Numbered from the stretch's first letter, positions 45,470 to 64,000 are shown. The stretch: DNA of 64,000 bases from an uncultured Lentisphaerota bacterium (GCA_903921725.1 CAIXRA010000003.1:39428-103427), one strand, 5' to 3'. Notes: a model not told the origin generated them from the sequence alone. Translations and numbers: made by a program.

Positions 45470-45531
45470 ATTGCATATTCTCCAGATCGTTCGTCTATAA
45501 AGTCAGCCCTGTGACCTTGCGAAAAATGGAA

Positions 45532-48837: not shown

Positions 48838-48966
48838 AGGCTTCATTATTCGTTACCTTGCAGATAATTGCATGTTAAAATTTGGGAGCTTGTACATTTT
48901 GAAACATCATGGAATTGGACGGGCGAAAACCAACAAAGGGACCAACAATAAAGGCACCAATATTTT

Positions 48967-49914: not shown

Positions 49915-51462
49915 TCAGGCTGCCGCCATGGCGGCGGCCTTGGCCTTGAGCCAGTTGTGAGGGAGGAGTTCGGCGACGCGGCTGGCGGGGTGGCCTTGGA
50001 TGCGGGCGAGGACGTCTGCGAGGTATTCGTAGGGGTCGGCACCGATGGCGCGGCAGGTTTGGACGAGTGACAGGAGCGTGCCGGTGGCCTCGCCGCCTTT
50101 CTGGCAGCCGGCGAAGAGCCAGTTTTTGCGTCCGATGGCCAGGGGGCGGATGGCGCGTTCGCTCATCCCGTTGTCGGGGTTGAGGCGCGCGTCCTGCAGG
50201 AAGGTCTTGACGGCATCGCCGAGGTTGAGCAGGTAGTTGACGGCTTTGGCGAAGCGGGAGGATGGCAGCAGGCCGCCTCCATCCAGCATCGCCTGGGCTC
50301 GTTGGATCATGCCGTCGATCAGCGGCGCGATGTGTTTTTGCCGGACGGCGAGGACGGTGGGTCGGCCGAACCAGGAGGCGACGCGCTCCCAGCGGTAAAG
50401 TCTGCGGATGTCTTCAAGGAAGAGCAGGCGCAGTGCGGGCGGCGCGTCTTCCGCCTCGAAGAATTTGCGGCGGATATGCATCCAGCAGGCGCACTCCGTC
50501 ACGCCATCCTGCTCAAAGAGGTCGTCGTATCCGTTGTAGGCGTCGGCATGGATGTAGCCGCGGTAGTTGCCGAGAAATTCCCGCGGCCGTTTTTTGCACC
50601 GGTCGGGGGTGAACTCGTAGTAGCGCAGCGGCGGGCCGTCGCCGCCGGCGACATAGACCCACATGCGCCCCTGTTTGAGCTTGCTGGTGCCCTTGACCTG
50701 GAGATCGACCGGGGTGTCGTCGGTGAAGAGGATGCCGCGGGAGAGAATCTCGGCCTTGAGGCCGGCCAGCAGCGGATTGAGCACCTCGGCGGCGGCGATG
50801 TAGAGGCGCGAGAGCGTCTGCCGGCCCACCTCGACGCCCATCATCCGCAACTGCTCCTCGATGCGGTAGAGCGGCACATGCCTGGCGAGCTTTTCGGTGA
50901 TGAGCATCGCCAGGAACGTCTCGTCGTAGCTGCCGCCGGGGATGGCGAAGTCCGGAGCCGGAGCGCGCACGACGCCCTGCGACGGGTTGGCGGGGGCCGC
51001 GTACTTCGGATAGACATGCACCCGGACGAAGCACTCGCCCGGCTTCCACGCCAGCTTTTCCACGCGATCCTCACCGATCTTCTTCATCGGCAGACCGCTG
51101 ACCAGGTCCACCTTGTCGTCATCGGCGATGTCATGCACAACTTCTACGCGGGGAAGGTCTTCCGGAATGAGTCCCTCCAGGCCGCGACGCGGCTTGGCCG
51201 CCACCGTCGCCCGGCGTGCGACCGTTTCCGCCGAATGGGCGGCCGCCATCGCCGCCTCCAGGCGCGCGACCTCCAGCAGGATCGCGTCCATCTGCAACTG
51301 GGCGGAATCAACCCCGACTTCCCGTTCCGACTTCCGCCCGTACAGCTGAGCTTGGAGCTTTTTCAGCTTCAGGTTGAGAAGCCTAATCTCCGCCTCCAAA
51401 ATGCCGACGACGCGGTCGTATTCCTCGCGCGGGACAGTCGGGTTGGTAGCGGCTTCATCCAT
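49915..51462 (-). CDS. IS66-family transposase TnpC
   Basis: N-terminal coiled coil and zinc-finger region, DDE core (ILFTDDTPVDLQV...HADAYNGY...CWMHIRRKF), C-terminal IS66_C region. Confidence 0.9.
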   Translation of the reverse strand: MDEAATNPTVPREEYDRVVGILEAEIRLLNLKLKKLQAQLYGRKSEREVGVDSAQLQMDAILLEVARLEAAMAAAHSAETVARRATVAAKPRRGLEGLIPEDLPRVEVVHDIADDDKVDLVSGLPMKKIGEDRVEKLAWKPGECFVRVHVYPKYAAPANPSQGVVRAPAPDFAIPGGSYDETFLAMLITEKLARHVPLYRIEEQLRMMGVEVGRQTLSRLYIAAAEVLNPLLAGLKAEILSRGILFTDDTPVDLQVKGTSKLKQGRMWVYVAGGDGPPLRYYEFTPDRCKKRPREFLGNYRGYIHADAYNGYDDLFEQDGVTECACWMHIRRKFFEAEDAPPALRLLFLEDIRRLYRWERVASWFGRPTVLAVRQKHIAPLIDGMIQRAQAMLDGGGLLPSSRFAKAVNYLLNLGDAVKTFLQDARLNPDNGMSERAIRPLAIGRKNWLFAGCQKGGEATGTLLSLVQTCRAIGADPYEYLADVLARIQGHPASRVAELLPHNWLKAKAAAMAAA

Positions 51463-51514
51463 GGCCGCTTAATATAAACTCAAGTTATTGCCGCGCAATC
51501 TATTGCAATCTTTT

Positions 51515-51868
51515 TTAGAAAATATTTTTTACGGGCTCCGGCGCGGCGTACCGCGGCGCCATTTTCAGCGGCACAACCCCTTCCAGAAGAAGCGCCAGCG
51601 ACCGCCGGTCCAGCACCACCCGCCCGTCGCGCGGCTCCGGCACCTTGAACCGCCCCTTCTCCAGGCGCTTTCCCCAGATCGCCAGCCCGTCACCCTCCCA
51701 GCGCAGAATCTTCACCTGCGTCGAGTCGCGGTTGACGAACACATAGTGCGCCCCGTCCACCGGCGAACGCCCCGCCTGGCACACCAGCGCCGCCAGCCCG
51801 TGGTACGACTTGCGCATGCTCACCGGCGACCGCCACAGCAGGATCTCCGATGCGCCGACGCTCAGCAC
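51515..51868 (-). CDS. IS66 accessory protein TnpB (Orf2)
   Basis: VSMRKSYHGLAALVCQ...HYVFVNRDSTQVKILRWEGDGLAIWGKRLEKGRFKVP. GTG start overlaps the tnpA stop. Confidence 0.9.
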   Translation of the reverse strand: MLSVGASEILLWRSPVSMRKSYHGLAALVCQAGRSPVDGAHYVFVNRDSTQVKILRWEGDGLAIWGKRLEKGRFKVPEPRDGRVVLDRRSLALLLEGVVPLKMAPRYAAPEPVKNIF

Positions 51869-52182
51869 GCCGCCCCGCCCAAGCAGTACACCACCCGCCG
51901 CAGCGCCGCCTCGTCAAACACCGAACCGATCACCAGCTCCATCCCCGACGGGAACCGCAACACCAGCCCGCAGCCACGCTCCGGCTCCGCCTGAACCCGC
52001 ACAAAGCCGTCCGAACCGACGGCGCCAGCGCCTGCGGCCACACGACGCTCACGCCGCAGCCAATACTGGAACTTCCACAACGCCAGACTGTTCGCCCGGC
52101 AGAACCCCGCCTGCGAAATCCCGCTTTCACGCCAGCGCGCCGTCACCCCAGCCCAATGCTTCTGCTTCTCCGCGAGATTCAT
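51862..52182 (-). CDS. IS66 accessory protein TnpA (Orf1)
   Basis: MNLAEKQKHWAGVTARWRESGISQAGFCRANSLALWKFQYWLRR (HTH-like). Start at ATG 52182. Confidence 0.8.
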   Translation of the reverse strand: MNLAEKQKHWAGVTARWRESGISQAGFCRANSLALWKFQYWLRRERRVAAGAGAVGSDGFVRVQAEPERGCGLVLRFPSGMELVIGSVFDEAALRRVVYCLGGAAC

Positions 52183-52430
52183 CCGAAAAACTCCCGTCGC
52201 CAAGCCGACCACCGGCCCGCGACGGAAACAACCATACCCCGCACGCTCACGGAAAAACAGATGCGGCATATGCGACGGTTACCGCGCCGTCACCCCCGAC
52301 CAATGCTCCTGCTTCTCCGTGAGATTCATCCGCAAAAACTCCCGCCGCCAAGCCGACCACCGACCCGCAACGGAACCAACCATACCCAGCACGCTCACGG
52401 AAAAACAGATGCGTCATATGCGACGGTTAC
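52135..52430. repeat. tandem 148-nt duplication of the IS66 right end (IR + leader + first 16 tnpA codons)
   Basis: 52135-52282 versus 52283-52430, roughly 90% identical by eye. Copy 2 encodes [16 protein letters not shown] versus MNLAEKQKHWAGVTAR in copy 1. Confidence 0.85.
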
Positions 52431-52952
52431 CTGGCCGTCGAAGTGGACAGCTCGCTCTCCGGGCTGCGGGTCGTGCGGGTGCTGGAGCGGATCGCCGCCC
52501 TGCGCGGCAAGCCGGACCGCCTGCTGACAGACAATGGCCCGGAGTTTTCCGGCAAGGCGCTGGATGCGTGGGCTTATGCGAACGGCGTGCGGCAGGAGTT
52601 CATCGAACCCGGCAAGCCGGTGCAGAACGCCCGCGTCGAAAGCTTCAACGGCCGCATGCGGGATGAGTGCCTGAACGAGCACTGGTTCATCTCCATGAAA
52701 CACGCACGGGAAACCATCGAAAAATGGCGCGAAGACTACAACCACTTCCGCCCGCATGGATCGCTGAAAAACATGACTCCGGCCGAATTCGCGGAAACGT
52801 TCCGCACCGGATAGGCCGCGGCCCCCCCCCCGGGGGAGGGGGACCAGGGGAACACCAGAAACAAAACCAAACCAAGAAACAAACACCAAACACAAGATTA
52901 CAGTACGGACAAGACTCTCATTGCATTTGGTACAGACAATGGGGGCACGTCA
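52431..52952 (+). mobile_element. 3' remnant of an IS3-family (IS407-group-like) element, truncated by the IS66
   Basis: Integrase-core C-terminus [56 protein letters not shown]...[14 protein letters not shown] (to the stop at 52814). The putative terminal repeat TGGGGGCACGTCA ends at 52952 and resembles the TGACCTGCCCCC-type end recalled from memory. Confidence 0.75.
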
Positions 52953-53014
52953 GAACGGCTTTCATGGAATAAGGGAACCGGAAAGCCTATTGCATATCCA
53001 CATGCTTATGCCGA

Positions 53015-53758
53015 CTACAAATCGTAGGACGGTCCGAATGTTGCCAGTTGCTGGCGACGTTGTTCGTAATCGGGCATGACCCGGCCCAAGAGGCGCCAAA
53101 ACTCTGGCGAATGCCGACTGTGGACGATGTGGCAGAGTTCATGGGCCACCACATACGCGACAAGCCGACGTGGAGCCATGATGACCCGCCAGTTAAAGCG
53201 CAGGTGGCCATTTGGGCCACCGCTGCCCCAACGCGTTTTCATGTCCAGCGCCCGCACCGAGGCAAACGCCACGCCCAGTTTTCGTGCAAAGTCGCGGGCC
53301 AAAACATCCAAATGCTCCATGGCGTGTTGCCGATACCAGCGGGTCAAGAGACGGCGAGTAACAACAACGCCCTCGTCATCCGTTAATGCAGGTGGTAGAT
53401 GCACCCAAAAACATCCGCGGGACAGGAGAATTTTCGAATGTTTTGCGGACGCATCCCTAACGATCCGTAGATGGTATTGCCGCCCGAGGTAGAGAAACGT
53501 TTCCCCGCTGACGAACTCTCGCGGCCGTCGCGGGTGATGACGCTGAATCCAGTCCTGCTGCTTCACTATCCAAGCCGCTTTCCGCTGAACTTCAGCGGCA
53601 ATCCGCACCTTTCGTTCTCCCTTTGGGGCGCTCACCATGACGCTCGCATCAGGGTTGACCGTAATGGCGAGAGTTTGCCGGCGGCTACTGCGCCGTACCT
53701 GGTAAACGATCTTGGTACCGCCAAACATGAGAGATGCTGTTTGTGCAGACGTGCTCAT
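53015..53758 (-). CDS. YgjP-like (DUF45 / M48-type) HExxH metal-dependent hydrolase
   Basis: VVAHELCHIVHSRHSPEFWRLL zinc motif. The ATGA overlap with the hsdR stop is a typical type I R-M association. Confidence 0.85.
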   Translation of the reverse strand: MSTSAQTASLMFGGTKIVYQVRRSSRRQTLAITVNPDASVMVSAPKGERKVRIAAEVQRKAAWIVKQQDWIQRHHPRRPREFVSGETFLYLGRQYHLRIVRDASAKHSKILLSRGCFWVHLPPALTDDEGVVVTRRLLTRWYRQHAMEHLDVLARDFARKLGVAFASVRALDMKTRWGSGGPNGHLRFNWRVIMAPRRLVAYVVAHELCHIVHSRHSPEFWRLLGRVMPDYEQRRQQLATFGPSYDL

Positions 53759-56700
53759 CTGAGCCGGATCCTCGCCAAGTCCATGATCTGGCTGGTAATG
53801 TCCTCAAGCTTGTCATCTTCCACATTGTTCAACCGGAGAAGGCGTTTTATTTTCCGGCGCATCTCCCGCTGGACATCCTCTTTGGCTTGCCAATCCAGTA
53901 CGGCGTCTTCCCGCACGGCTTCAAGGATGCCCTCCGCGAGAACCGACATCTGTGATCCGTATTCCTCACTGTCGTCATGCATTTCCATGTTCTTGGAAAG
54001 GATGCCGTAAATCGGGTATGCCGCTTCCGTAACGCCATGTGTCTTGGCCCGTTCCTCGCTGCCCCCCTTCATCTCTTCACGCAAGGACATCAGTACCTTG
54101 AACTCTTCCGTATCGTCAAGGCGTTGTTCCCGGCGGTCATGGATGATTCGTTCCAAACGTTCTTTGATGGACTCATAAAATACCGGATCTTCGTCCAGCT
54201 TGACGGAGATGGTACGTTTGATGGCATGCTCCATGCGACTGGCCTTTGCCCGCGGAGATTGAAGCTTGGCCACCTCCGCCGAAAACCCTTCCGACATGAT
54301 AGGGATTGCTTCCAGGAGGACACGGATTTCCTCTCCCTTGACATGACGGTCAATAAGTTCGCGGACACGTTCATGGCAGTCAGGCAACTGTGTGTCCTCT
54401 TCCTGGAAACAGGTCGCCATTTCCCGGCGCAGCCGGCGCAACCACGCAAAATCCTCCAAGAACGCGATAGCTCTTTGATCCGGCAGCAGTTGCTCGATTG
54501 CTCGGTAAAACTCCCGGTACCGGGCAAGAAAGACCGTGCGCTTGTCCTCAGGTTCAAGCGTCATGATCCACGGCTCGATATTGTCGCGCGTCAAATCAGC
54601 CGCAAACATGGCAAACACATCGGCGCGGCGTTGCTTTAGCGCCTGGTAAGCGGACTCATCGTCGCGGCGGTGTAACACGTCCTCAATGATCAGGTCATCG
54701 GCAAACACCGCCAGCGCCTTGTCCAAGAAGCCAGCAACGCCCCAATAGTCAACGATCAGCCCCCACTGCTTGTCCAACTCCGGCAACGGCCGGTTCACGC
54801 GCGCAATGGCCTGCAACAGGTTGTGCTCCCGCAGCGGCTTGTCCAAGTACAGCACACGTTCGATGGGGGCGTCAAAGCCGGTCAGGTATTTGTCCGCCAC
54901 CACGATGATCGCCAACTTATCGACGCCGTCTTCCTTAAACTGGTCAATGATGGCCTCTTCGTTTTCAAACTGTTTCTTTAGCTCCCACAAATTACTGTCT
55001 TTGGTGGACGGATCGGAAATCAGCAGGGCAACGCGATCCGGGAAGTACTTGCTAAGCTCTTTGTAATACTGCGCCGCCGCCAACTGCGAACAGGCGGCCA
55101 CCTGGGCCTTGAACCCGTCCGCCGCGAAATGTTGCTGGTAGTGGGTGGCAATGTCATGGGCGATCATCACCGTACGGTCGGTCGCCGCTTCGGCAATACG
55201 GCGCTCCGTGATTTCCTGCTGCTTCAATTTCTCCCGCTGCGGCACCGTCAGGTGCGCAAAAGACGCATCAAAGATTGGATCCAGCCGCTTGCCCCAGATG
55301 GCCAGTTCCGGCAACCGGCTTTCATACAGAATCCGCACCGTCGCGCCATCCGCTACCGACTGCGGCATGGTGTACTTATGGATGTATGGCCCGAACTTCT
55401 CCCGTGTCTTGTCAATCGGCGTTCCGGTGAACGCGATAAAGCAGGCATTGGGCAGTGCCTGCCGCATGTGCGCGGCAAACCACAGATATTGCGAGCGGTG
55501 CGCCTCGTCAACCAGGACAAAGACATTCCCCACCTCACTCAAGACTGGATGTTGGCTAACCTTTTTCCGCCCGACCGTTTCCCCTTCGCCGAAGAACTTT
55601 TGCACCGTGGTCATCACCGTCTGTCCCGCCGGCCCGCTGAGCAGTTTGCGGAGATGTAGCACACGCGCCGCCCGCACCGGGTTTTCAAACCCGCATCCTT
55701 GGAAGGTCTTGGAAATTTGCCGATCCAAATCCCGCCGGTCGGTAACGATCAGCAAGGTTGGATTATCAAGTTCTTTGGCACGCCGCAATTTCAGGCAAAG
55801 CCAGAGCATAGTCAGGCTCTTGCCGCTTCCCTGCGTGTGCCAGACAACACCATTGCGTTCCTTTACCGGCAGCTTGCTGGTGGGGTCGGTAATCCGCCGG
55901 ATCGCCTCATTCACCGCCTCGTATTGCTGGTAGCGCGCCAGTTTCTTCACCACGCGCCCGCCATCCCGGTCAAAGGCGACAAAGTTGCGTGCCAGATCCA
56001 GCAGATTCTCCTTGGCAAACAGCCCCGCCAGCGTAACGTCCTGCTTGGTCAGGGGGCGGCCTATCATGCGCTCCAGGTCATATCGGCTGCGCGGATACAC
56101 ACTCTTCCATTCCATGTACCGGTTCAAGGGTGTCTCGACCGTCCCGTATCGTGCATCGCTACGCTTCGTCGCCACGCAGAACAGCACCGTATGGAAAAGC
56201 CGGGTCACCCCTTTTTCCATGTCCTGATAGGCGAGCATGTCTCGTACCGCATGCTCGATCCCATGCTCATCCCCCGGCGCCTTACACTCAACTACGGCCA
56301 AGGGAATGCCGTTGACAAAAAGTACCAGATCCAGACGCCGCGTCGCCCGCGGCCCCCGCACCGTAAACTCCTCGACCACCAGAAACTCATTGTTTAGGGG
56401 ATTGTCGAAATCAATGAACCGTACGCTTGGCGCCACCAATTTTCCGCCGCGCGTCTCCTCCACGGTCACCCAGCGGCTCGCCAGCCGGTAACAAGCCTCA
56501 TTGGCATCCAACAGCCCGGCCACCAGCGGTTGCTGCAGCGCCGCGATGGCCTGCCTTACCCCAACTTCGGTCAGTCCCGGATTGATCTCCTGTAGCTTCC
56601 GGCTCAGCCGGGCGAGCAGCAATACCTCGGTCTCGCTTTCCCGTTCCGCTGCGAACTCCGCCGCTTGTCCGTCCGCATGGTCATAGCCGAATACGTCCCG

Positions 56701-56763
56701 CAGCAATTCGACCGCCGGCCGCTGGACTTCCGTGTATTCAGGTCCGTTTCTGGGCATTGGCAT
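53755..56763 (-). CDS. hsdR: type I restriction enzyme, R (endonuclease/translocase) subunit
   Basis: N-terminal PEYTEVQRPAVELL, nuclease-core region (VNGIPLAVVECK), SF2 motifs WHTQGSGKSLTM and LVDEAHRSQ; about 1000 aa. Confidence 0.93.
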   Translation of the reverse strand: MPMPRNGPEYTEVQRPAVELLRDVFGYDHADGQAAEFAAERESETEVLLLARLSRKLQEINPGLTEVGVRQAIAALQQPLVAGLLDANEACYRLASRWVTVEETRGGKLVAPSVRFIDFDNPLNNEFLVVEEFTVRGPRATRRLDLVLFVNGIPLAVVECKAPGDEHGIEHAVRDMLAYQDMEKGVTRLFHTVLFCVATKRSDARYGTVETPLNRYMEWKSVYPRSRYDLERMIGRPLTKQDVTLAGLFAKENLLDLARNFVAFDRDGGRVVKKLARYQQYEAVNEAIRRITDPTSKLPVKERNGVVWHTQGSGKSLTMLWLCLKLRRAKELDNPTLLIVTDRRDLDRQISKTFQGCGFENPVRAARVLHLRKLLSGPAGQTVMTTVQKFFGEGETVGRKKVSQHPVLSEVGNVFVLVDEAHRSQYLWFAAHMRQALPNACFIAFTGTPIDKTREKFGPYIHKYTMPQSVADGATVRILYESRLPELAIWGKRLDPIFDASFAHLTVPQREKLKQQEITERRIAEAATDRTVMIAHDIATHYQQHFAADGFKAQVAACSQLAAAQYYKELSKYFPDRVALLISDPSTKDSNLWELKKQFENEEAIIDQFKEDGVDKLAIIVVADKYLTGFDAPIERVLYLDKPLREHNLLQAIARVNRPLPELDKQWGLIVDYWGVAGFLDKALAVFADDLIIEDVLHRRDDESAYQALKQRRADVFAMFAADLTRDNIEPWIMTLEPEDKRTVFLARYREFYRAIEQLLPDQRAIAFLEDFAWLRRLRREMATCFQEEDTQLPDCHERVRELIDRHVKGEEIRVLLEAIPIMSEGFSAEVAKLQSPRAKASRMEHAIKRTISVKLDEDPVFYESIKERLERIIHDRREQRLDDTEEFKVLMSLREEMKGGSEERAKTHGVTEAAYPIYGILSKNMEMHDDSEEYGSQMSVLAEGILEAVREDAVLDWQAKEDVQREMRRKIKRLLRLNNVEDDKLEDITSQIMDLARIRLR

Positions 56764-58264
56764 ACGCCTTTCCGTGCAAGCCGTCCGTCTCGCCCCCGAC
56801 ACCAGCGTCCAGCGCCGCCCGCCCCAATGCCGTCAACCGGTATTTCTGCATCCGGCTCTGCGGCTTTTCGGGTAGTGTCATCTCAACCAAGCCAGCGGCC
56901 AATGCGGGCATGACATAGGCCTCCCGTACATGTGTCCGGTCACGCAACCCCAACTCCTCCCGGATCTCCGCCGCGCCAAGTTCCCCACGGTTCGCCAACG
57001 TCCGCAACAGCGCCCCTACTGGTGGGGTGACTGGTGGGGTGACTGGTGGGGTGACGCCCCCTGTTACTTTGCCCTGGCTGCATGGCTTGAACGTCACCAC
57101 CACTGTACGGGCGCTTTCGCTCCAGGCCGGCTCCGGTGCCAGCCCCTCGTTGCACCAGCGCAGGATATTGATGGCACCGCTGCCCCAGCGCTCGATGATT
57201 CCGGCACGGTGTAGCACCGACGCGATGATGGGATTCCACGGACGCGATGCATGCGCACTCCGCAACTTCTCCGACGTGATGCCGAAATGGAACTCGCCCG
57301 GATTCGTGATCTCCAGATGGTCATCGTACATGGCGACTTCCACAGCGCCACCGGCCATGGCGTAGTCACGGTGACAGAATGCATTCGCCAACGCCTCCCG
57401 CGTTGCCCGCGGCGGATAGTCTGGAAAATCCTCCCGCTGCATCTTGCCGGCAACCACCCGCCCGGCAATGTGTACATGGTCAGCCAGAAACTGTTCGGCG
57501 TGCCGGAGCAGGCAGAATATACCGCCCCAGTATTCCCGATTGTCCGCGAACTCCGCCAGCCGGTTGACGCCCCGGAACCGTCCCAGACGCACGCTGAATT
57601 GCGGAAATTGTGCAAACAGCGAACGGTTCGGATGCGCATACAACGCGACCGCGGCGTTCATCAGCCTGCCGTCATCCGCCATGAGATTCAACCCAACCAA
57701 CGCGGCCGTCGTATCCGTGGCGGAAATGGCCCCGAGCCGCCCAAGTTGCTGGGCCGTAATGACAGTCTGCCGAATCTCATCGGCATCCAGGTCGGCAAGC
57801 GTCACCCCCGCCGGGCATGGCTGATTCTCCCAACGCACGGTGCCATGCAATTTCTCGGCCAACCTGAGTTCGTAAAGCGCCTGCGGCATCTCCGACGTCG
57901 TTGGCCCCAGTCGTAGGAACGGCCGCCGCCGATAAGTGAACGGACCACCGCCCCCCGGCACGGTTAAAACGATGGCGGAGCGTCCGGGCACCACGGACAC
58001 CACGTCCAAGTCCGGCACCGTCGCCGGCTGGATTTCCCGGATCGTGGCGGCCACTTCCTCCAGGGTATCCGTCCCCAACTCCTGGCCCAACAGCCGTCCG
58101 TCCGGTGTCACGCCAAAGACCACCCGCCCACCCTCGCCATTCAGCATGGCGCACAACGTCTCCATGGCCCGCGAACGTTGCCCCGTGGACTGCTTGAACT
58201 CAAGCGTCTGGCTCTCCCCAGCAGAAATCAGTTGTTGGAGCTCTGTAAGTGTCATCATGCTCAT
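56738..58264 (-). CDS. AlbA_2 (Schlafen-like) + HATPase_c_4 + C-terminal wHTH protein (often annotated as a RecG-like/transcriptional regulator)
   Basis: ESQTLEFKQS...LCAMLNGEGGRVVFGV (AlbA_2), REALANAFCHRDY...IERWGSGI (HATPase_c_4-like), C-terminal wHTH. It overlaps the hsdR start by 26 nt. Confidence 0.8.
   Translation of the reverse strand: MSMMTLTELQQLISAGESQTLEFKQSTGQRSRAMETLCAMLNGEGGRVVFGVTPDGRLLGQELGTDTLEEVAATIREIQPATVPDLDVVSVVPGRSAIVLTVPGGGGPFTYRRRPFLRLGPTTSEMPQALYELRLAEKLHGTVRWENQPCPAGVTLADLDADEIRQTVITAQQLGRLGAISATDTTAALVGLNLMADDGRLMNAAVALYAHPNRSLFAQFPQFSVRLGRFRGVNRLAEFADNREYWGGIFCLLRHAEQFLADHVHIAGRVVAGKMQREDFPDYPPRATREALANAFCHRDYAMAGGAVEVAMYDDHLEITNPGEFHFGITSEKLRSAHASRPWNPIIASVLHRAGIIERWGSGAINILRWCNEGLAPEPAWSESARTVVVTFKPCSQGKVTGGVTPPVTPPVTPPVGALLRTLANRGELGAAEIREELGLRDRTHVREAYVMPALAAGLVEMTLPEKPQSRMQKYRLTALGRAALDAGVGGETDGLHGKAYANAQKRT
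57019..57054. repeat. 3 x 12-nt perfect tandem repeat (CTGGTGGGGTGA) encoding (VTPP)3
   Basis: Read directly. It is in frame within the linker before the C-terminal wHTH of the AlbA_2 protein. Confidence 0.9.
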
Positions 58265-58270
58265 CCTATC

Positions 58271-58666
58271 TCAGCCGAGTTTTCCGGCGATATACACGAT
58301 CAAGGCCAAATAGCCAACGACATTCAAACAGACCTTGCCCCAGAAGAACCCCAGCGTCGGCCAGTTGATCTTTATGGGAGCTTTCAACACTTTGTCCTCC
58401 TTAACCCCGGCTTTCTCTTTGCGCCGACAGAAAAGCCCCCAAGCCGCCGTAGCGTAAATGTAATGTCCGAGGTCGAATGCCAGCGATACCGCAAACAAGT
58501 AGAGAACCCATAGCAGACTTGGCGCAAATGGGATGCCACCACCGTTCTTGTCACCAACTCGGAATATCCAAATGATGGCAATGCCCGCGAAGTTTAGTTG
58601 ACGAGTGATCTCGCTCAACTTGGCGGAATACCCGTAGTACTCTTGGCGGTAGTCTGATAATTTCAT
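58271..58666 (-). CDS. small 3-TM membrane protein (possibly SLATT-like; unverified)
   Basis: Soluble N-helix YRQEYYGYSAKLSEITRQL followed by hydrophobic helices NFAGIAIIWIF, LLWVLYLFAVSLAF and GKVCLNVVGYLALIVYIAG. Its ATG overlaps the stop of the 59-aa ORF. Confidence 0.7.
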   Translation of the reverse strand: MKLSDYRQEYYGYSAKLSEITRQLNFAGIAIIWIFRVGDKNGGGIPFAPSLLWVLYLFAVSLAFDLGHYIYATAAWGLFCRRKEKAGVKEDKVLKAPIKINWPTLGFFWGKVCLNVVGYLALIVYIAGKLG

Positions 58667-58842
58667 TTGGGCCTTCCTGAATCCCGCTTCGGACCAGTGC
58701 TGCTGGTTTCTTCCTTGTGCCCACGACTGAAACCACCCTGCGGGGTGTCACGGTTACTGATTAATGTGCCCTCGCCATGTCTTTCAACGGGGCGTTGTTC
58801 GTTTGTTTTCGGCGGTGGCGGAACGATTTTCTTGTCGCTCAT
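58663..58842 (-). CDS. 59-aa hydrophilic P/G/K-rich protein (absent from the supplied ORF track)
   Basis: Hand translation: MSDKKIVPPPPKTNEQRPVERHGEGTLISNRDTPQGGFSRGHKEETSSTGPKRDSGRPK*. AAGGAG lies 8 nt upstream of the ATG, and the ATGA overlap couples it to the TM gene. Confidence 0.5.
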   Translation of the reverse strand: MSDKKIVPPPPKTNEQRPVERHGEGTLISNRDTPQGGFSRGHKEETSSTGPKRDSGRPK

Positions 58843-58925
58843 GTGAGTTCTCCTTCGGTTTTCATTATTCTATAGTCTAAACAGCACTACAAATCCAAGT
58901 AAGGTTTATCTGCCATGATGTGTCT

Positions 58926-60050
58926 TCAAAACCCCTGACACCCGTAAGCAGCCAATGTAACATCCGCCACCTCGTAACCATGACGAAACAGGCGGTCATA
59001 CTCATTTGGTGTCAACCGACGGAGAGTGGTTTCGGTGCCTGCCGCCGCCGCAACGTCTTCCTTGCTCATTAACAACGGTTTGTCCGTCCCGGCAGGTGGT
59101 TGCACGCGAGCCATACTCCATATCGCATCGGCCGTATTACCCATCCTAAAGAACGCCCCATTCTTTTTCTGGTTAAAGTGGTCAACGATTGCTCGTGCGC
59201 GTATCGAGCGAACCTGATCGGTCGCGACATCGATGAGTCTAAACGGGGGAATGTATTGCGGCAATCCCCACTGAAACCGCTTGAACTCAAGCCCCAAGGG
59301 CCGTGAAGCGTCACTGACAATATAGAAGTCAACCTCCTTGCGAAGGCCACGTCCGGGCTTAAATATTGCTTCCGATCCAAGATTATCGTACACGCCACCA
59401 TCCCACAGTGTAAGCTTGGGAGCAATGGGATCTACTGGTACGGACGGCTCTCCGCCTGTTTCTTCACCAAAACCCTTGGCGTATTTGAGCCACGCATACT
59501 TCGTTGTTGCTAACCGAAGCGGGCCAATCAGACCAGGTACCGCGGCAGATGCGGCAGCAGCATCTGCAAGCGGAAACGATGGATTTACCACATAGTTCGC
59601 AAGGTAATCCCCCATCCTCTTAGCACAAAACCTCCAACTCTTCCCCGTCTCATAGCAAGTGGCATTGATGACCATACGGGGGTGAAGAGGTAGGTCCTGT
59701 AGGTCTGCATCAATTCCCCACTTGCTCTTCAGTAGTCGAGCAATTATTGAGGCTCTTCCCCTGGGTAGCAACCATGGATTCAGAAGCATTTTCAACATGT
59801 AGGCGCGTTGCAAGTTACAAGTAGTCAGCAGGGTTCGAATGTGGGGCAGAACTTCTTGGTATTGCTTTGCGTCAGGCCACCGTTTTCCGGCTTTCTGGAA
59901 AATTAAGGCTGCGCAGAGACTCCCGCCCGAGACCGTTGACAAAAAGGAGATGTCCCCCCACCGGGGGCCGTTCGCAAGGCGGGAAAGCATACCGAGATGG
60001 AACACCGTTGCTCGTACTCCACCGCCAGAGAGTGAAATGCCGACTTTCAT
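58926..60050 (-). CDS. patatin-like phospholipase
   Basis: Oxyanion motif LSGGGVRAT, nucleophile elbow TVSGGS, catalytic Asp motif WDGGVYDNLG. The TAATG overlap couples it to the upstream MBL gene. Confidence 0.9.
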   Translation of the reverse strand: MKVGISLSGGGVRATVFHLGMLSRLANGPRWGDISFLSTVSGGSLCAALIFQKAGKRWPDAKQYQEVLPHIRTLLTTCNLQRAYMLKMLLNPWLLPRGRASIIARLLKSKWGIDADLQDLPLHPRMVINATCYETGKSWRFCAKRMGDYLANYVVNPSFPLADAAAASAAVPGLIGPLRLATTKYAWLKYAKGFGEETGGEPSVPVDPIAPKLTLWDGGVYDNLGSEAIFKPGRGLRKEVDFYIVSDASRPLGLEFKRFQWGLPQYIPPFRLIDVATDQVRSIRARAIVDHFNQKKNGAFFRMGNTADAIWSMARVQPPAGTDKPLLMSKEDVAAAAGTETTLRRLTPNEYDRLFRHGYEVADVTLAAYGCQGF

Positions 60051-60883
60051 TAGTCGCCCTCATACTGGTTAAACGTATACGCCCCCTCGGGCGTAATTGA
60101 GAAATGGATTCGCCCTTTCTGTTTAGTGGACAAAAACTTCTTTATTTCTCCATTTAATTTCAACCCCAACGGTTTTTCTCGAAAACTCTTGTCGGTCGGT
60201 GATTGCCCTGCAACATCGCTGATCAAGGCAAGGTGTGGGTTTATGCAGTCCATCATGTGCTGTGAGTAACCTGATTCCCGGCCGTGGTGGGGTGCCACGA
60301 GGATTCGCCATTTTGCAGCCTTAATAAGTGGCTCGAAAACTTCTTTCTTAGCGGTCCACAATTCCTGCCAACCGCTGTCTTCGATGTCGCCAGGGCAGAC
60401 GAACAGCCATCCGGCGTATAAGTAGAAAGCTACCACAGAAGTATTATTCCCGGTACATGACTCGGAATAATTGTTATACCCTGCCTTGACTTCGACGCCA
60501 CCATTGTAAGTGGAATTCATTGGACTTTCGGCATCTGCCACCGGCGAAATATAGGTGGTATCAAGTATCCTGAATGTCTTTTGGTAATCCAGTGTAGCAC
60601 TTTTGAATTTCTCTTCCTCGGGCAGGGATTTATTGCGTAGAAGAATCCGCGGATTTCCGAGAGACTCCACAAGTTGCGTCAGATCATTTAAATGGTCGCC
60701 ATCAGGGTGGCTAAGGATCAGGAAGTCAAGTTTGGTGACTGCGTACTTCTCTTTCACCCATTTGCTTGGCGAAAAATCACCTGCGCGACCGGCATCAATC
60801 CAATGATGCTGACCAGCCGGTGTCTGTAGCCAAATAGCGAGTCCATGTTCCACGTCCCAAAGCGTAAATATAAAGTCCGGCAT
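60050..60883 (-). CDS. MBL-fold metallo-hydrolase, ComEC/Rec2-type (HxDxDH variant)
   Basis: WDVEHGLAIWL, ILSHPDGDHLNDL and VAPHHGRESG. Start at ATG 60883 with GAGGTG upstream, 4 nt after the preceding stop. Confidence 0.85.
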   Translation of the reverse strand: MPDFIFTLWDVEHGLAIWLQTPAGQHHWIDAGRAGDFSPSKWVKEKYAVTKLDFLILSHPDGDHLNDLTQLVESLGNPRILLRNKSLPEEEKFKSATLDYQKTFRILDTTYISPVADAESPMNSTYNGGVEVKAGYNNYSESCTGNNTSVVAFYLYAGWLFVCPGDIEDSGWQELWTAKKEVFEPLIKAAKWRILVAPHHGRESGYSQHMMDCINPHLALISDVAGQSPTDKSFREKPLGLKLNGEIKKFLSTKQKGRIHFSITPEGAYTFNQYEGD

Positions 60884-60887
60884 TTTG

Positions 60888-61844
60888 TCACCTCGTATAT
60901 TGGGATTTGATTTTTCCACACCCTGCGTCATCAATTGTTACCCAAATATTTCCACGCCAACGCGTAGACCATACATTTTTACAATAGTTGCTATACTTAC
61001 TCGAAGCGTCAGTCTCCGGCTTTTTCCCGACAGACACAATTGTGTACTCTGGTTGCATTAACGCAACTGCTTTTGCACAATAACCGGTATCACGACCGTG
61101 GTGGCTTGCTTTTAGAATATCGCATTTTAGATCAGCCCCATAGTATTCGGCAACCTCTTCCCATGCCGCCTCTTCGGCATCACCGCCGAAAATAATTTTA
61201 ATGCCATTGTAAGTCAAACGAAGAATGTAGCTGAAGTTGTTAGGATTCTCTGCCGCCGCACCTGTGGCTGATGTATTTCTGCCAAATGGCGGATGTAGAA
61301 TTTCGATACCATCACCAGGCTTTACGCCGGCTGGGTTCTCTCCATAGTAAATCCCACTCGCTCCCCGATTCAATCGTAAAATTTTGTTGCCCCGTAGCCC
61401 CTTTTGATGCGCTTGATATTCGGCCAAGTCTGCGTTGTTTTCATCTTTTAAGGGAGGGACAAAGGAGTGTGCGGTATCCCAAAAGTTGTGGATTTTTCGT
61501 CCATCCGCATATAATGCAGCGAGACCACACATGTGATCCTTATGGGGGTGACTCTGGATATAACGAAAAATATCTTTTCCGGGATACTGTTCACGCAGAA
61601 AATCAATGGGGTTGGTCAAGTCAATGTTGTACCCCTGTGCCGCTACTTTTTCAAGTAACAACGATTCGTTCAATATTTCTTCGCCTTGGGGCAGGCCTAA
61701 TGGATAATATTCCTGCAGTTCGTTCAATGTATCAATATCCATTTCTTGACCATTGTTTATATCAATCATGGTTAGTAACTGACTTGCATGTTGAATGACA
61801 GTGCAGTCCCCATGGCCGACATTTAAGAAATCGATTCTCACCAT
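60888..61844 (-). CDS. MBL-fold metallo-hydrolase, ComEC/Rec2-like (HxHxDH)
   Basis: FLNVGHGDCTVI, IQSHPHKDHMCGL, IFGGDAE and KASHHGRDTG. Confidence 0.88.
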   Translation of the reverse strand: MVRIDFLNVGHGDCTVIQHASQLLTMIDINNGQEMDIDTLNELQEYYPLGLPQGEEILNESLLLEKVAAQGYNIDLTNPIDFLREQYPGKDIFRYIQSHPHKDHMCGLAALYADGRKIHNFWDTAHSFVPPLKDENNADLAEYQAHQKGLRGNKILRLNRGASGIYYGENPAGVKPGDGIEILHPPFGRNTSATGAAAENPNNFSYILRLTYNGIKIIFGGDAEEAAWEEVAEYYGADLKCDILKASHHGRDTGYCAKAVALMQPEYTIVSVGKKPETDASSKYSNYCKNVWSTRWRGNIWVTIDDAGCGKIKSQYTR

Positions 61845-61951
61845 TGCGCCCCCCTTATTTATTTTTCATTCTTACAGCCGTTGAGTCGCCGTCGTCTCGG
61901 TATCGCATGGGCATGAGAAAGGCCGAACAATTGAGACTGGAATGGACAAAA

Positions 61952-63187
61952 TCACTCATCAAGTTCCTCCCCCAGCGGAGATTCTTCTGTGACAACATTA
62001 TTGGGCTGGGGCAGCTGGGGGAACCTACTCTGTTCGACGCATTTTAAGCACTCCGAAAGTTCGGCATACTTCTGCGCGTCTACTGCATCGTAAGAACCTT
62101 TGCTTGCCAGCAATAACTGCTGGCGGGCCATCGACAATCGTTTCAGATACGGAATAACCACGCCACTTACCAGCGATACGAAGGAATCCATGTTTTGCGC
62201 GGTATTGGGAATTTTATACCCTTTGTTACTGCTGGCGATAATAACGCCCTGGCTTCGCAACTTGCCAACGACCTGTGCTCGGAATGTTTGGTGAGTTATT
62301 GGTTCTGGCGTAAACTTGTTAAGGTGTCGAATAATTTCATCTGTATAGACATATTGTGCAGGATCGACTTCATATCGAAACAGTAAGTATCGAAGTGTCT
62401 CTACCTGTACTTCAATCCGCGGGTCATCACTGCCTACATTTGTTGCAAAGAAATCACGAGCAAGCATGATTCCTTGCTGGGCGACCAAATGGTCATGCCG
62501 TTCTTTGTCTTCAATCTCCCCTAATACATCCGGCCTTTTAATGTTGGGCGGCCAGCGCTCGATGATTATGGCCGAGCCGGAGAGTAACGCCAGTACATCA
62601 TCGGGATCACTGCCGGAATAGACGCGCAAGAGGGAACCGGCGATAATGTCTGCGGCCTGCACCAAAGGCTCCGTTGCGCTGTTCGCAAAACGACAGTCCG
62701 CATGGTCAAACAACTCTTTCTGGTATCGCTCCTCCATGTATTTCCGGAAACCGTCCATAAAGTCTGGACTTCCATGCTCGTCCGCAACAACATGCAGGCT
62801 CGCAAAAGCACGGTAGAGCCTTTTGTAGAGTCGGCCATGCAGATACTTGATGAATGATTTTTTGTACTGCAGGCCGGAGGTCGCATCAATATCGTTTTTA
62901 TCTACCACAAATGCACAAAATTTGATACCGGTCGCAACCAGAGCATTTAGGACGTCTTTTCTTCGCGCCAAATTTCCCCCAATGTTAGACGACTTCAGCT
63001 CTCCTTTTCCGCAAAACTTTGATCGAACTTGATCAACTTTGGCGGCAATGGCATCTTTGGCGTTTTCATCCACCAGCACTGCACAGACAACGTAAAATGA
63101 GGACACGTTTTTCTTATGTAGCCCCAAGTGCGGATCACCGGCTTCGTCAATAAACGCCCACTGAGTTGTCTGGGGAATCTCGTTCAT
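61952..63187 (-). CDS. DUF3800 domain protein with C-terminal winged-helix-like domain
   Basis: WAFIDEAGDP...FYVVCAVLV...LVQAADIIAGSL (DUF3800 pattern) and a C-terminal KLRSQGVIIASSNKGYKIP wHTH-like region. ATGA overlap with the hsdS stop. Confidence 0.8.
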   Translation of the reverse strand: MNEIPQTTQWAFIDEAGDPHLGLHKKNVSSFYVVCAVLVDENAKDAIAAKVDQVRSKFCGKGELKSSNIGGNLARRKDVLNALVATGIKFCAFVVDKNDIDATSGLQYKKSFIKYLHGRLYKRLYRAFASLHVVADEHGSPDFMDGFRKYMEERYQKELFDHADCRFANSATEPLVQAADIIAGSLLRVYSGSDPDDVLALLSGSAIIIERWPPNIKRPDVLGEIEDKERHDHLVAQQGIMLARDFFATNVGSDDPRIEVQVETLRYLLFRYEVDPAQYVYTDEIIRHLNKFTPEPITHQTFRAQVVGKLRSQGVIIASSNKGYKIPNTAQNMDSFVSLVSGVVIPYLKRLSMARQQLLLASKGSYDAVDAQKYAELSECLKCVEQSRFPQLPQPNNVVTEESPLGEELDE

Positions 63188-64000
63188 GACTTGCCCCGAC
63201 GATCAGGATGCATTGGGCCGGTCAGTAATGCTTGGCTTAGTGCGGATTTTATGTTTTGTAACCGCATGAACTGGTTAATCTGTTCGTTGCGAACAACGTC
63301 GATTTGTTTTACCGTTTTAGCAATTTGCTGCTGGTCGCTCAATTTGGGAAGGGGGATTGGCAGCGCCTCAAGTATAGCCCGATCAATTTTCTTCATTGAC
63401 CCACTGGTTCCCCGGGCGGTCCGTTCAAAATAAGCTCTACTTGCAGCGGAAAGAAACGCATACGACACAAAGTCGTTATCCACCTTTTTGGGATCGATCC
63501 GAACTCGCATCAGCAAATCTGAATACGAACATCGCGACGGTTTGCCAGAATACACGCCGGCAAGTCCAACTAACTCTTGCGTATTGGAGCGGCTAACAAC
63601 AATGTCGCCAACTTCCAATACGTTTTGTAGAACTCTTTCATCTTCGAGCGGCGCTGGTTTGACTCCCTTTTCGTTGTAGCCCTCTGAAGAAACGGCGGAA
63701 AGGGTTAGTATCCAAATCCCAGACGCCTCCCGTGGACAGACAGGCGAATATCCATTCTTTATAGGTTCTCGCAATAGACTTCCTAATGGTACAACTGACC
63801 AAGTTGCCGGATACTGCGACAGCCATTTGCATGATTTTAACTTTGCTTTTTTTCCCGGTACCCCATGGGTAAGCAGGTCATTGAGGATCGCAGACTTGAG
63901 GCAGCGGGTCTGGGCGATGACGGCATGGGTGGCGTCAATCGCGGCGTCCACGGCGTTCAGGATCTCGGCGATGCGACGCTGTTCGGGAAGAGAGGGTGCC
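63184..64000 (-). CDS. hsdS: type I restriction-modification specificity subunit (partial, continues beyond the window edge)
   Basis: Conserved central/C-terminal helices LPEQRRIAEILNAVDAAIDATHAVIAQTRCLKSAILNDLLTHG and LPIPLPKLSDQQQIAKTVKQIDVVRNEQINQFMRLQNIKSALSQALLTG flank one target-recognition domain. The frame is open to nt 64000. Confidence 0.88.
   Translation of the reverse strand, partial: APSLPEQRRIAEILNAVDAAIDATHAVIAQTRCLKSAILNDLLTHGVPGKKAKLKSCKWLSQYPATWSVVPLGSLLREPIKNGYSPVCPREASGIWILTLSAVSSEGYNEKGVKPAPLEDERVLQNVLEVGDIVVSRSNTQELVGLAGVYSGKPSRCSYSDLLMRVRIDPKKVDNDFVSYAFLSAASRAYFERTARGTSGSMKKIDRAILEALPIPLPKLSDQQQIAKTVKQIDVVRNEQINQFMRLQNIKSALSQALLTGPMHPDRRGKS

Follow-up and report, generated by a model that had tools for sequence, protein, structure and literature searches.

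Embedded genes are described as frequent in type I restriction-modification (R-M), BREX, DISARM and Hma operons in 10.1101/2024.01.29.577857, in which the PADLOC PDC families are also derived from such genes. PrrC, embedded in EcoprrI, is a documented guard in a type I locus (PMC12707154), and the TgvAB pair embedded in a Vibrio cholerae type I operon works by itself (PMC11411939). The precedents used for comparison were PrrC in EcoprrI, TgvAB in Vibrio cholerae VPI-2, the rlo genes in Campylobacter jejuni, and the catalogue of Payne et al. 2024. The window, by which the whole 64,000-nucleotide stretch of DNA analysed is meant, shares with these precedents same-strand extra genes between hsd core genes and a slot that related loci fill differently, and two of its cargo proteins match PDC families that were defined from such embedded genes. 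It differs from them in holding seven ORFs, or about five modules, in one slot (Payne et al. 2024 count three or fewer embedded genes between neighbouring Hma core genes), and in an hsdS whose composition is that of the cargo. The locus is, in our judgement, probably a horizontally acquired type I R-M operon in which the slot between hsdS and hsdR holds about five self-contained defence-type modules.

ORF calling in the 64-kb window gave 10 consecutive ORFs from 53015 to the window edge, all on the minus strand, in the order hsdS, DUF3800, MBL1, MBL2, patatin, 59-aa ORF, 2-TM protein, Schlafen-type gene, hsdR and ygjP. The features are listed below in window coordinates.

63184..64000, minus strand: hsdS, C-terminal 271 codons, truncated by the window edge (Methylase_S, Specificity_I)
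61952..63187, minus strand: DUF3800 protein, 411 aa (PF12686)
61845..61951, no strand: 107-nt gap 5' of MBL1, with the ribosome-binding site AAGGGGGG at its end
60888..61844, minus strand: MBL1, 318 aa, ComEC-like metallo-beta-lactamase-fold hydrolase (PDC-M48B, PDB ComEC MBL)
60050..60883, minus strand: MBL2, 277 aa, second ComEC-like MBL hydrolase (PDC-M48B, PDB ComEC MBL)
58926..60050, minus strand: patatin-like phospholipase, 374 aa (PF01734)
58843..58925, no strand: 83-nt A+T-rich gap 5' of the 59-aa ORF, with the ribosome-binding site GAAGGAG at its end
58663..58842, minus strand: 59-aa hydrophilic ORF, C-terminal motif SSTGPKR
58271..58666, minus strand: 131-aa protein, two membrane helices predicted by hydropathy scan
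56738..58264, minus strand: Schlafen (AlbA_2)-HATPase_c_4-winged helix protein, 508 aa (three Pfam domains)
53755..56763, minus strand: hsdR, 1,002 aa from ATG 56763 (TIGR00348, Pfam)
53015..53758, minus strand: YgjP-like (SprT/WLM-type) zinc metallopeptidase, 247 aa (PF01863)
52443..52814, plus strand: IS3-family integrase-core fragment, 123 aa, at the low-coordinate island border (rve_3, rve, rve_2)
49915..52269, minus strand: IS66-family element of three ORFs (TnpB_IS66, transposase matches)

ATGA occurs at the hsdS/DUF3800, 59-aa/TM and hsdR/ygjP junctions, the ATG start codon of DUF3800 overlapping the hsdS stop, and the patatin start overlaps the MBL2 stop (TAATG). Gaps of 4 nt and 6 nt separate MBL1 from MBL2 and the TM gene from AlbA_2, and the 83-nt gap has a G+C content of 0.37. 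The AlbA_2 ORF overlaps hsdR by 26 nt, given an hsdR start at ATG 56763, which is supported because a 77%-identical orthologue aligns from residue 3. The strand, the gene order and every overlap and gap of the original prediction, including those of 107 nt and 83 nt, were reproduced, as were all of its domain calls (Pfam, PADLOC and NCBIfam); its spacing of about 5 kb between hsdS and hsdR was too short, since the hsdS stop and the hsdR start lie 6,420 nt apart, with the 7 payload ORFs between them. A consensus scan for promoters and terminators over 52800-64000 gave no more sites than shuffled sequence, and no coding-strand promoter or terminator reached its thresholds in the 107-nt and 83-nt gaps, where promoters missed by the scan could lie. 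We infer co-transcription of the ten genes from the ORF overlaps only, the scan speaking neither for nor against a single transcript.

The HsdS fragment in the window matched Pfam Methylase_S and many PADLOC Specificity_I models. Full-length HsdS (P0121, 424 aa, 100% identical over the 271 window residues) was located on a 7,326-bp ENA/NCBI contig, on which a 617-aa HsdM_N + N6_Mtase gene lies directly 5' of hsdS with an overlap of 11 nt; the hsdM predicted upstream of hsdS was found there, next to an identical HsdS on another contig, and not in the window. HsdR scored 487.2 bits with TIGR00348 (NCBIfam cut-off 284.55), matched HSDR_N, SWI2_SNF2, T1R_D3-like and T1RH-like_C in Pfam, and carries GSGKS312, DEAH419 and an ExK nuclease motif. 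Judged by these matches, the locus can be assigned to the type I R-M systems, with HsdR and HsdS in the window and HsdM from the separate contig. YgjP (PF01863, 195.5 bits) has an intact HELCH206 motif, and its pairing with hsdR was also seen in locus L019, in Pontiella (L104) and on a Synechococcus plasmid.

L019, the one close orthologous locus compared (HsdR 77% and YgjP 64% identical), has the order hsdM-hsdS-[four unrelated genes]-hsdR-ygjP, one of the four encoding a PD-T4-6-like Ser/Thr kinase. The same hsdS-hsdR slot thus appears with different cargo, as expected from the proposal that type I R-M loci are landing pads for additional defence genes. Across 47 metagenome loci in which hsdM precedes a gene for a relative of the window HsdR, the distance from the end of hsdM to the start of hsdR had a median of 3.8 kb and exceeded 2.5 kb in 34 and 5 kb in 17, compared with about 1.3 kb in a compact operon.

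The region had been described as a lower-G+C island bordered by IS debris. Its G+C content is 0.45-0.63 over 53-64 kb vs 0.666 for 1-45000, and the spot counts given (29/60 at 61001-61060 and 48/60 at 12001-12060) were exact, but the island is not uniform, ygjP-hsdR-AlbA_2 being at 0.59. What was called IS debris is the 123-aa IS3-type fragment (52443-52814), which matches only C-terminal portions of rve_3, rve and rve_2, plus an apparently complete IS66 element (tnpA/B/C) with a 135-aa ORF in the tnpA position, TnpB_IS66 and a 515-aa DDE transposase. Third-position G+C (GC3) is 0.71 in hsdR and 0.74 in the Schlafen/AlbA_2 gene, vs 0.42-0.54 from hsdS (0.50) through the 59-aa ORF. The Pontiella locus has GC3 of 0.80 in hsdM and 0.79 in hsdR, 0.49 in hsdS and 0.43-0.48 in the cargo; the corresponding values in L019 are 0.89, 0.86, 0.76 and 0.67-0.79. 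The composition of hsdS groups with the cargo and not with hsdR. Because hsdS has the low GC3 of the cargo at three loci, the variable centre of hsdS plus cargo may have been swapped by recombination between conserved hsdM and hsdR flanks, a route suggested by codon-position composition at three loci only (window, Pontiella and L019). Other causes, too, often make the composition of hsdS genes atypical.

The DUF3800 protein (PF12686, 51.2 bits vs a cut-off of 21) consists of an N-terminal RNase H-like domain, in which the motifs D14-E15 (DE) and Q177AAD180 (QxxD) are present, and about 200 uncharacterised C-terminal residues; it has a weak PADLOC match to PDC-M04A. An RNase H-like DUF3800 domain with DE and QxxD in a defence context is also found in retron type VII and in the CRISPR accessory Csx32 / TPR-DUF3800. 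Unlike those systems, the window protein has no reverse transcriptase, Cas or TPR partner, and it has the C-terminal half of about 200 residues and a start overlapping hsdS. Full-length homologues (about 29% identity) were single genes on plasmids, none adjoining R-M genes in the contexts sampled.

MBL1 and MBL2, which are 25% identical to each other, matched PADLOC PDC-M48B with 76.7 and 134.8 bits, respectively, and the ComEC MBL domain in PDB (MBL1 family profile, E = 4e-16; MBL2, E = 2e-14). The residues H99xHxDH104, D222 and H248-H249 are intact in MBL1, and H59xDxDH64, D166 and H199-H200 of MBL2 are invariant in 24 homologues. The B component of PDC-M48, a two-gene candidate cassette in PADLOC (FAM_01875>>FAM_00178), is represented by both proteins, but no window protein matches the PDC-M48A model at E <= 0.01, and PADLOC v2.0.0 does not include the patatin partner. 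The patatin (PF01734, 49 bits) has an oxyanion-hole GGGxR, a nucleophile S41 (TVSGG) and D217 (DGG), invariant in 7 sequences; no solved structure was detectable by sequence. As a patatin-fold Ser-Asp phospholipase, last gene of a defence operon and predicted to kill by membrane damage, CBASS CapV is similar; unlike in CBASS, no CD-NTase cyclase was found among the ten proteins (Pfam, PADLOC, NCBIfam). The PADLOC CBASS phospholipase model did not match the window patatin and matched an orthologue faintly (E = 0.003).

MBL1, MBL2 and the patatin, possibly with the 59-aa/2-TM genes, could instead form one system, a relative of 6A-MBL without cap2_3, its MBL enzymes acting before an effector that damages membranes, and this alternative is considered doubtful. 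In its favour, a contig encoding an MBL2 86% identical to that of the window keeps the order hsdS-DUF3800-MBL1-MBL2 and the start of the next gene, and an MBL enzyme was paired with a membrane protein or phospholipase in every sampled context. In MBL1 homologues of six other lineages, the next gene encodes a multi-pass membrane protein of 209-248 aa; in L013, L016 and L101 the two lie between hmaA and hmaB of intact Hma, and in L005 and L007 they adjoin Hma remnants. The L013, L016 and L101 cassettes (MBL1 53-54% identical), which also show an MBL1-TM-MBL2' arrangement, resemble the window in that MBL1 and a multi-TM protein, with or without an MBL2-like protein, are nested in a methylation-based system; unlike in them, MBL1 of the window directly precedes MBL2-patatin. 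The multi-TM partner was not found in the window, so MBL1, lacking a membrane partner that is present in all other sampled contexts, may not be self-contained here. Behind cap2_3, some plasmid 6A-MBL operons have a patatin that shares 39-40% identity with that of the window, and others an MBL2-like protein 28% identical to MBL2 followed by a 230-aa multi-TM protein; what these operons have in common with the window is accessory genes, not the core.

The separate occurrence of the parts argues against a single system. MBL1 is without patatin in all six other sampled lineages, and MBL2 is followed by patatin without MBL1 in three. In these three lineages the ORFs overlap, MBL2 is 46-61% identical to that of the window, and the patatin has diverged in step with it (patatin/MBL2 identities of 60/61%, 51/51% and 48/46%); the pair lies 3' of a PvuII-type methylase (L102/L103), between hsdM and hsdS in Pontiella desulfatans (L104-106), and alone beside SIR2-HerA (L111-113). 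With the 6A-MBL enzyme model NF058524 (cut-off 220 bits), MBL1 and MBL2 scored far below the cut-off, at 35.7 and 21.7 bits, whereas true 6A-MBL enzymes on plasmids scored 394-402 bits and their cap2_3 607-691 bits, above the NCBIfam cut-offs; no cap2_3 (E2/E1/JAB) was detected by NCBIfam in the ten proteins or by tblastn across the window. The 107-nt gap 5' of MBL1 and the 4 nt between MBL1 and MBL2 are compatible with both readings.

Two hydrophobic segments were predicted in the 2-TM protein by a hydropathy scan. It belongs to a large, unannotated family (1,373 representative clusters reach E <= 1e-3, and 699 of them E <= 1e-10) and has no match in Pfam, PADLOC, NCBIfam or PHROG, as the 59-aa ORF has none in Pfam, PADLOC or PHROG. 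Elsewhere the pair turns up in phage contigs. Of ten viral-contig loci, nine have a small ORF (49-63 aa, with [ST]-x-G-P-[KR] at its C-terminal end) directly next to the 2-TM homologue; in the remaining one, a 200-aa ORF that contains three NGTGPR repeats takes this place.

The Schlafen domain PF04326 scored 53.3 bits (cut-off 25.3) and contains the motif Ex4(E/D)xK as E17SQTLEFK24 (E17-x4-E22-x-K24); with HATPase_c_4 (73.5 bits) and Fic-like_C, a winged helix (75.6 bits), both likewise above their Pfam cut-offs, the protein is a HisKinase-HTH fusion. This AlbA_2, HATPase_c_4 and winged-helix arrangement is that of the pSlfn HisKinase-HTH architecture, which accounts for 19% of prokaryotic Schlafens and is the second commonest (10.1101/2025.07.24.666596). 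Defence by tRNA cleavage is reported there for other architectures, the DUF262-Schlafen and Ig-like-domain fusions only, from which the window protein differs in its HisK-wHTH domains and in its overlap with hsdR. Proteins of the Schlafen-HisK-wHTH type are widely associated with BREX-type loci (PMC12839542).

Alternatively, some or all of the nested genes, the Schlafen gene at the least, might encode PrrC-like guards of the R-M system, kept inactive as long as HsdMSR is intact and freed once a phage anti-restriction protein disables it. We regard this as unlikely, although several observations agree with it: the overlaps hsdS/DUF3800 and Schlafen/hsdR suggest coupled expression, the Schlafen GC3 is like that of hsdR in the window, and a Schlafen-HisK-wHTH homologue occupies the same hsdS-X-hsdR position, between hsdS and hsdR-SprT, in the unrelated cyanobacterial plasmid Synechococcus pIITB7_2. 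Another homologue lies in a Deinococcus type I locus. Schlafen is, moreover, a predicted tRNA-directed RNase like PrrC, itself a documented guard (PMC12707154). Homologues are, however, also found on a small plasmid without R-M genes and, in Azotobacter, within BREX between brxC and pglX, and no Schlafen gene was found in L019, the closest orthologous R-M locus. Neither an ABC-ATPase nor a PrrC-type anticodon nuclease, the PrrC/RloC guard domains, was found in the payload with Pfam and PADLOC, and TgvAB and the Hma-embedded candidates HEC-05/06 function without a host system.

That the intervening genes are non-defence passengers or decaying genes that split and silenced an old R-M operon is very improbable: the island is flanked by IS elements and compositionally mosaic, and MBL proteins are often labelled 'competence protein ComEC' and patatins lipid-metabolism enzymes, but none of the ten ORFs is broken, their catalytic motifs are complete and the start/stop overlaps preserved, the MBL proteins (277-318 aa) consist of the MBL fold only, without the ComEC membrane channel domains, and the same families recur in Hma, BREX, type I and type II systems and beside SIR2-HerA.

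The preferred reading is a type I R-M operon of the order hsdM (beyond the window)-hsdS-...-hsdR-ygjP, with the space between hsdS and hsdR as a probable cargo slot for, in order, DUF3800; MBL1; MBL2-patatin; the 59-aa ORF with the 2-TM protein; and the Schlafen-HisK-like-winged helix protein. The R-M complex would provide first-line discrimination by methylation, and the nested modules would be independent second-line effectors, probably of abortive infection, expressed and transferred jointly with the R-M genes. Schlafen is predicted to cleave tRNA, the patatin to hydrolyse membrane lipids, and the MBL and DUF3800 proteins to cut nucleic acids. The original prediction is supported overall, except that it treated the payload as one cassette, which was found to comprise about five separable modules, each found elsewhere by itself. 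Linkage to R-M genes held in part: in a small sample of 12 gene contexts skewed to long contigs, MBL1, MBL2-patatin and Schlafen recurred in Hma, type I, type II or BREX systems, but DUF3800 homologues and the 59-aa/TM pair were seen only outside R-M.

The seven nested ORFs, with each module also present in other contexts, fit the embedded-cargo definition of Payne et al. 2024, and the locus would be a large new example of an established layout, because embedding in type I R-M has already been published. Two of its gene pairs, MBL2-patatin and small ORF/2-TM, are as yet unnamed candidates that merit testing.

Ten consecutive ORFs were located on the minus strand across positions 53015-64000, in the gene order of the original prediction, and the domain calls made there were upheld by Pfam, PADLOC, and NCBIfam. 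MBL1 and MBL2 (318 and 277 aa) are ComEC-like metallo-beta-lactamase-fold proteins, and the genes between hsdS and hsdR are referred to as cargo.

Genes of the type I restriction-modification (R-M) locus
53015-53758, minus strand, ygjP (YgjP-like, 195 bits)
53755-56763, minus strand, hsdR (TIGR00348, 487 bits against a cut-off of 284.55)
56738-58264, minus strand, Schlafen-type protein (AlbA_2, HATPase_c_4, and a Fic-like C-terminal winged helix)
58271-58666, minus strand, 131-aa protein with two transmembrane segments (2-TM protein)
58663-58842, minus strand, 59-aa ORF
58926-60050, minus strand, patatin
60050-60883, minus strand, MBL2 (PADLOC PDC-M48B match)
60888-61844, minus strand, MBL1 (PADLOC PDC-M48B match)
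61952-63187, minus strand, DUF3800 protein (above the Pfam cut-off; weak PDC-M04A match)
63184 to past the window edge, minus strand, hsdS

Each predicted junction was exact on re-count, and both spot G+C values, 29/60 and 48/60, were reproduced. The distance from the hsdS stop to the hsdR start, put at about 5 kb, is actually 6,420 nt. The region is lower in G+C (0.45-0.63, compared with 0.666 in the first 45 kb) but is a compositional mosaic rather than a uniform island, and the border described as IS debris does contain IS sequences, these being one apparently complete IS66 plus an IS3 fragment. In a scan for consensus promoters and terminators, sites were no more frequent than in shuffled sequence and none fell in the 107-nt and 83-nt gaps; the operon structure is therefore based on ORF overlaps alone. 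The stretch between the IS3 fragment and ygjP (52815-52900) has a C/G homopolymer tract, GGCCCCCCCCCCGGGGGAGGGGGACC, and after it a low-complexity run rich in A and C, CCAGAAACAAAACCAAACCAAGAAACAAACACCAAACACAAG. A second lower-G+C stretch (45000-49000, 0.50-0.61) lies just before IS66, possibly belongs to the same acquired region as the R-M locus, and carries the following genes:
45755-47248, minus strand, DUF6880 protein of 497 aa
47079-48665, minus strand, 528-aa ORF with no Pfam match

The predicted hsdM was found beside an identical HsdS on a separate 7,326-bp ENA/NCBI contig, outside the window. The full-length HsdS on that contig (P0121, 424 aa) is identical to the window HsdS over all 271 residues visible there, and a 617-aa HsdM_N plus N6_Mtase gene directly precedes it with an 11-nt overlap. 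The absence of hsdM upstream had been named as evidence against the prediction; its presence beside an identical HsdS speaks, indirectly, against this objection. This contig stops 45 bp past hsdS; it also carries ORFs of 199 and 140 aa and an IS4-type transposase, which may represent the far border of the locus. Assemblies from ENA samples ERZ1426517 and ERZ1426815, which represent the same organism or a close relative, end at this point past hsdS (the 7,326-bp contig) and inside DUF3800 (a 2,490-bp contig); the cause may be variation between strains at the cargo slot or no more than low coverage.

The interpretation of the locus as a whole was supported: it is probably a mobile type I R-M operon carrying about five independent defence-type modules in the slot between hsdS and hsdR. 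That the slot acts as a landing pad, as predicted, was borne out by the closest orthologous locus (L019), a single close relative obtained by a metagenome scan with HsdR (HsdR 77% and YgjP 64% identical). Its layout is hsdM (617 aa), hsdS, four genes, hsdR, and ygjP, and the same slot holds other cargo (4612-9944), comprising a protein of 799 aa whose N-terminus is restriction-endonuclease-like, a PD-T4-6-like Ser/Thr kinase of 301 aa, and two unknowns (400 and 265 aa). All four are unrelated to the window cargo. No homologues of the window cargo genes were found among 80 loci carrying HsdR relatives. The distance from the hsdM end to the hsdR start was also taken from 47 more distantly related loci in which hsdM lies upstream of the HsdR relative, many of them gut-metagenome near-duplicates and all with measurable distance bounded by a 10-kb flank; the median was 3.8 kb, with 34 loci exceeding 2.5 kb and 17 exceeding 5 kb, compared with about 1.3 kb in a compact operon. 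The window, with an equivalent distance of about 7.7 kb, falls at the upper end of this range and is no outlier.

A YgjP/SprT-type zinc metallopeptidase gene lies directly 3' of hsdR in all four type I loci compared, namely the window (53015-53758), L019 (13000-13740), a Pontiella desulfatans locus (L104, 17373-18125), and L114 (7115-7834). The junction is a 4-nt overlap in the window and L019, a 1-nt overlap in L114, and a 3-nt gap in L104.

Third-position G+C (GC3) in the window is 0.71 for hsdR, 0.74 for the Schlafen gene, and 0.62 for ygjP; hsdS is at 0.50, close to the cargo genes DUF3800 (0.52), MBL1 (0.42), MBL2 (0.52), patatin (0.54), and the 59-aa ORF (0.53), with the 2-TM gene intermediate (0.64). 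The Pontiella locus (L104, 7478-18125) gave 0.80 for hsdM and 0.79 for hsdR, 0.49 for hsdS, and 0.43-0.48 for MBL2, patatin, and a 201-aa ORF, while L019 gave 0.89 and 0.86 for hsdM and hsdR, 0.76 for hsdS, and 0.67-0.79 for its cargo. In each of the three type I loci, the GC3 of hsdS sides with that of the cargo, apart from the frame genes. It is plausible, but unproven, that hsdS and cargo are exchanged as one block by recombination in the conserved flanks.

The MBL2 family profile matches the ComEC MBL nuclease domain in solved structures (E = 2e-14). Besides the window, three lineages have an MBL2 orthologue followed by patatin, the two ORFs overlapping by 1 or 4 nt: 3' of the methylase gene in a PvuII-type type II system (L102/L103; MBL2 61% and patatin 60% identical), between hsdM and hsdS of the Pontiella desulfatans type I locus (L104-106; 51% and 51%), and as a standalone pair adjoining SIR2-HerA (L111-113; 46% and 48%). 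The two identities fall in parallel across lineages, indicating co-divergence, and three of the four lineages that keep the pair, the window included, link it to R-M genes. One phage-contig MBL2 homologue (44%) is without patatin, and a more distant patatin adjoins an MBL gene in divergent orientation. The patatin family is not represented in PADLOC v2.0.0, and a literature search for an MBL plus patatin defence system gave nothing specific, with none of the papers available naming one.

A contig with an 86%-identical MBL2 retains hsdS, DUF3800, MBL1, MBL2, and the start of the next gene; the relative with this MBL2 also carries a DUF2188 gene between hsdM and hsdS (PADLOC PDC-S16 family in Pontiella). 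MBL1, whose family profile likewise matches the ComEC MBL nuclease domain in solved structures (E = 4e-16), has homologues (47-54% identical) in six other lineages with a multi-pass membrane protein of 209-248 aa next downstream; no such multi-TM partner is present in the window. In the metagenome contigs L013/14/15, L016, and L101, MBL1 and a multi-TM partner of about 215-220 aa are nested between hmaA and hmaB of Hma systems, with a 294-aa MBL2-like third gene in the L013 and L101 lineages and a Ser/Thr kinase plus a 259-aa unknown in its place in L016. Hma remnants lie beside the MBL1 homologue in Pelotomaculum thermopropionicum (L005) and in L007.

The closest plasmid relatives of patatin (39-40%) stand last in operons that open with two genes scoring above the NCBIfam cut-offs, one for the 6A-MBL enzyme and one for cap2_3; on Polaromonas pPNAP01 the place of patatin is taken by an MBL2-like protein (28%) and a 230-aa multi-TM protein. 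6A-MBL systems and the window have accessory parts in common, but the 6A-MBL core is absent from the window. The extra genes of bona fide 6A-MBL systems on Gluconobacter, Agrobacterium, Magnetospirillum, and Polaromonas plasmids (L010, L011, L012, L108) vary: patatin is directly 3' of cap2_3 in L010 and L011 and adjoins the system convergently in L012, and in L108 the MBL2-like and 230-aa multi-TM proteins follow cap2_3. Membership of 6A-MBL was rejected because of low scores (35.7 bits for MBL1 and 21.7 bits for MBL2, where the cut-off is 220) and the absence of cap2_3, and CBASS was rejected because no cyclase is present. Homology between the MBL1-associated and Polaromonas 230-aa multi-TM proteins was unsupported (hhalign probability 0.7%, E = 0.08). 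An MBL enzyme of the MBL1/MBL2 kind was partnered with a membrane protein or a phospholipase in all sampled contexts, a pattern that suggests a putative enzyme plus membrane-effector design.

A 30%-identical Schlafen homologue on Synechococcus plasmid pIITB7_2 is the X of an hsdS-X-hsdR-SprT array with overlapping ORFs, and another on Deinococcus pRadio3 follows hsdM-hsdS-DUF262-RelE/HigA; further homologues lie between brxC and pglX in Azotobacter and, with no R-M neighbour, on a small Acinetobacter plasmid. This Schlafen-HisK-wHTH architecture is the second commonest among prokaryotic Schlafen proteins (10.1101/2025.07.24.666596) and is widely associated with BREX-type loci (PMC12839542). 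On plasmids of Leptospira, Dyadobacter, and Mucilaginibacter, full-length homologues of the DUF3800 protein (about 29%) occur as lone genes; the domain is RNase H-like by description and has been tied to retrons of type VII and to accessory genes of CRISPR systems.

The 2-TM family comprises 1,373 representative clusters (E <= 1e-3) and is unannotated in Pfam, PADLOC, NCBIfam, and PHROGs; no plasmid matches and no relatives among about 120 previously gathered comparison loci were found for the window protein. The 59-aa ORF and 2-TM gene form a conserved pair: homologues of about 130 aa occur in ten viral contigs (L121-L130), and in nine of these, as in the window, a hydrophilic ORF of 49-63 aa ending [ST]-x-G-P-[KR] abuts the 2-TM homologue upstream. 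In L123, the exception, that position is occupied by an ORF of 200 aa carrying three NGTGPR repeats, and in L121 the pair comes after a tail-completion gene.

Catalytic motifs are complete in HsdR (GSGKS, DEAH), YgjP (HELCH), the Schlafen protein (E17-x4-E22-x-K24), DUF3800 (DE, QAAD), MBL1 (HPHKDH), MBL2 (HPDGDH), and patatin (GGGxR, S41, D217). Of the alternatives to independent modules, coupling of the nested genes, chiefly the Schlafen protein, to the R-M complex as guards is unlikely, it is doubtful that MBL1, MBL2, and patatin form one single system, and it is highly improbable that the nested genes are passengers unrelated to defence.

Within the preferred reading of independent modules, it is tentatively proposed that MBL2-patatin might be an unnamed autonomous two-gene anti-phage system, mobile with hsdS, and the 59-aa/2-TM pair a second unnamed, phage-borne module. 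MBL2, as a ComEC-like metallo-nuclease, would sense or process invader nucleic acid, and patatin, as a CapV-like phospholipase, would carry out abortive infection, the pair being made of parts also used as 6A-MBL add-on effectors. The pair and hsdS may travel together among R-M loci in the form of a 'specificity plus cargo' cassette, swapped by recombination between conserved hsdM and hsdR flanks.

Embedded genes were shown by Payne et al. (10.1101/2024.01.29.577857) to be frequent in Hma, BREX, DISARM, and type I R-M systems and served there as the source of the PADLOC PDC families; TgvAB (PMC11411939) and PrrC (PMC12707154) are worked examples of defence genes embedded in type I loci. The locus is therefore a new, unusually full case of a known phenomenon, and, since nested defence genes in type I R-M operons are established, it leaves the general picture unchanged. 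The architecture itself is expected, and the value of the locus lies in offering a dense, clearly bounded set of candidates. The leads are the pairing of MBL2 with patatin, that of the TGPK/R small ORF with the 2-TM gene, and the compositional block of hsdS plus cargo. MBL1 is of interest as a candidate whose usual home is inside Hma systems, and the small-ORF/2-TM pair as part of a very large unannotated family that occurs in phage contigs too. That hsdS and cargo are linked by composition in three loci points to a simple route by which specificity could be swapped together with accessory immunity.
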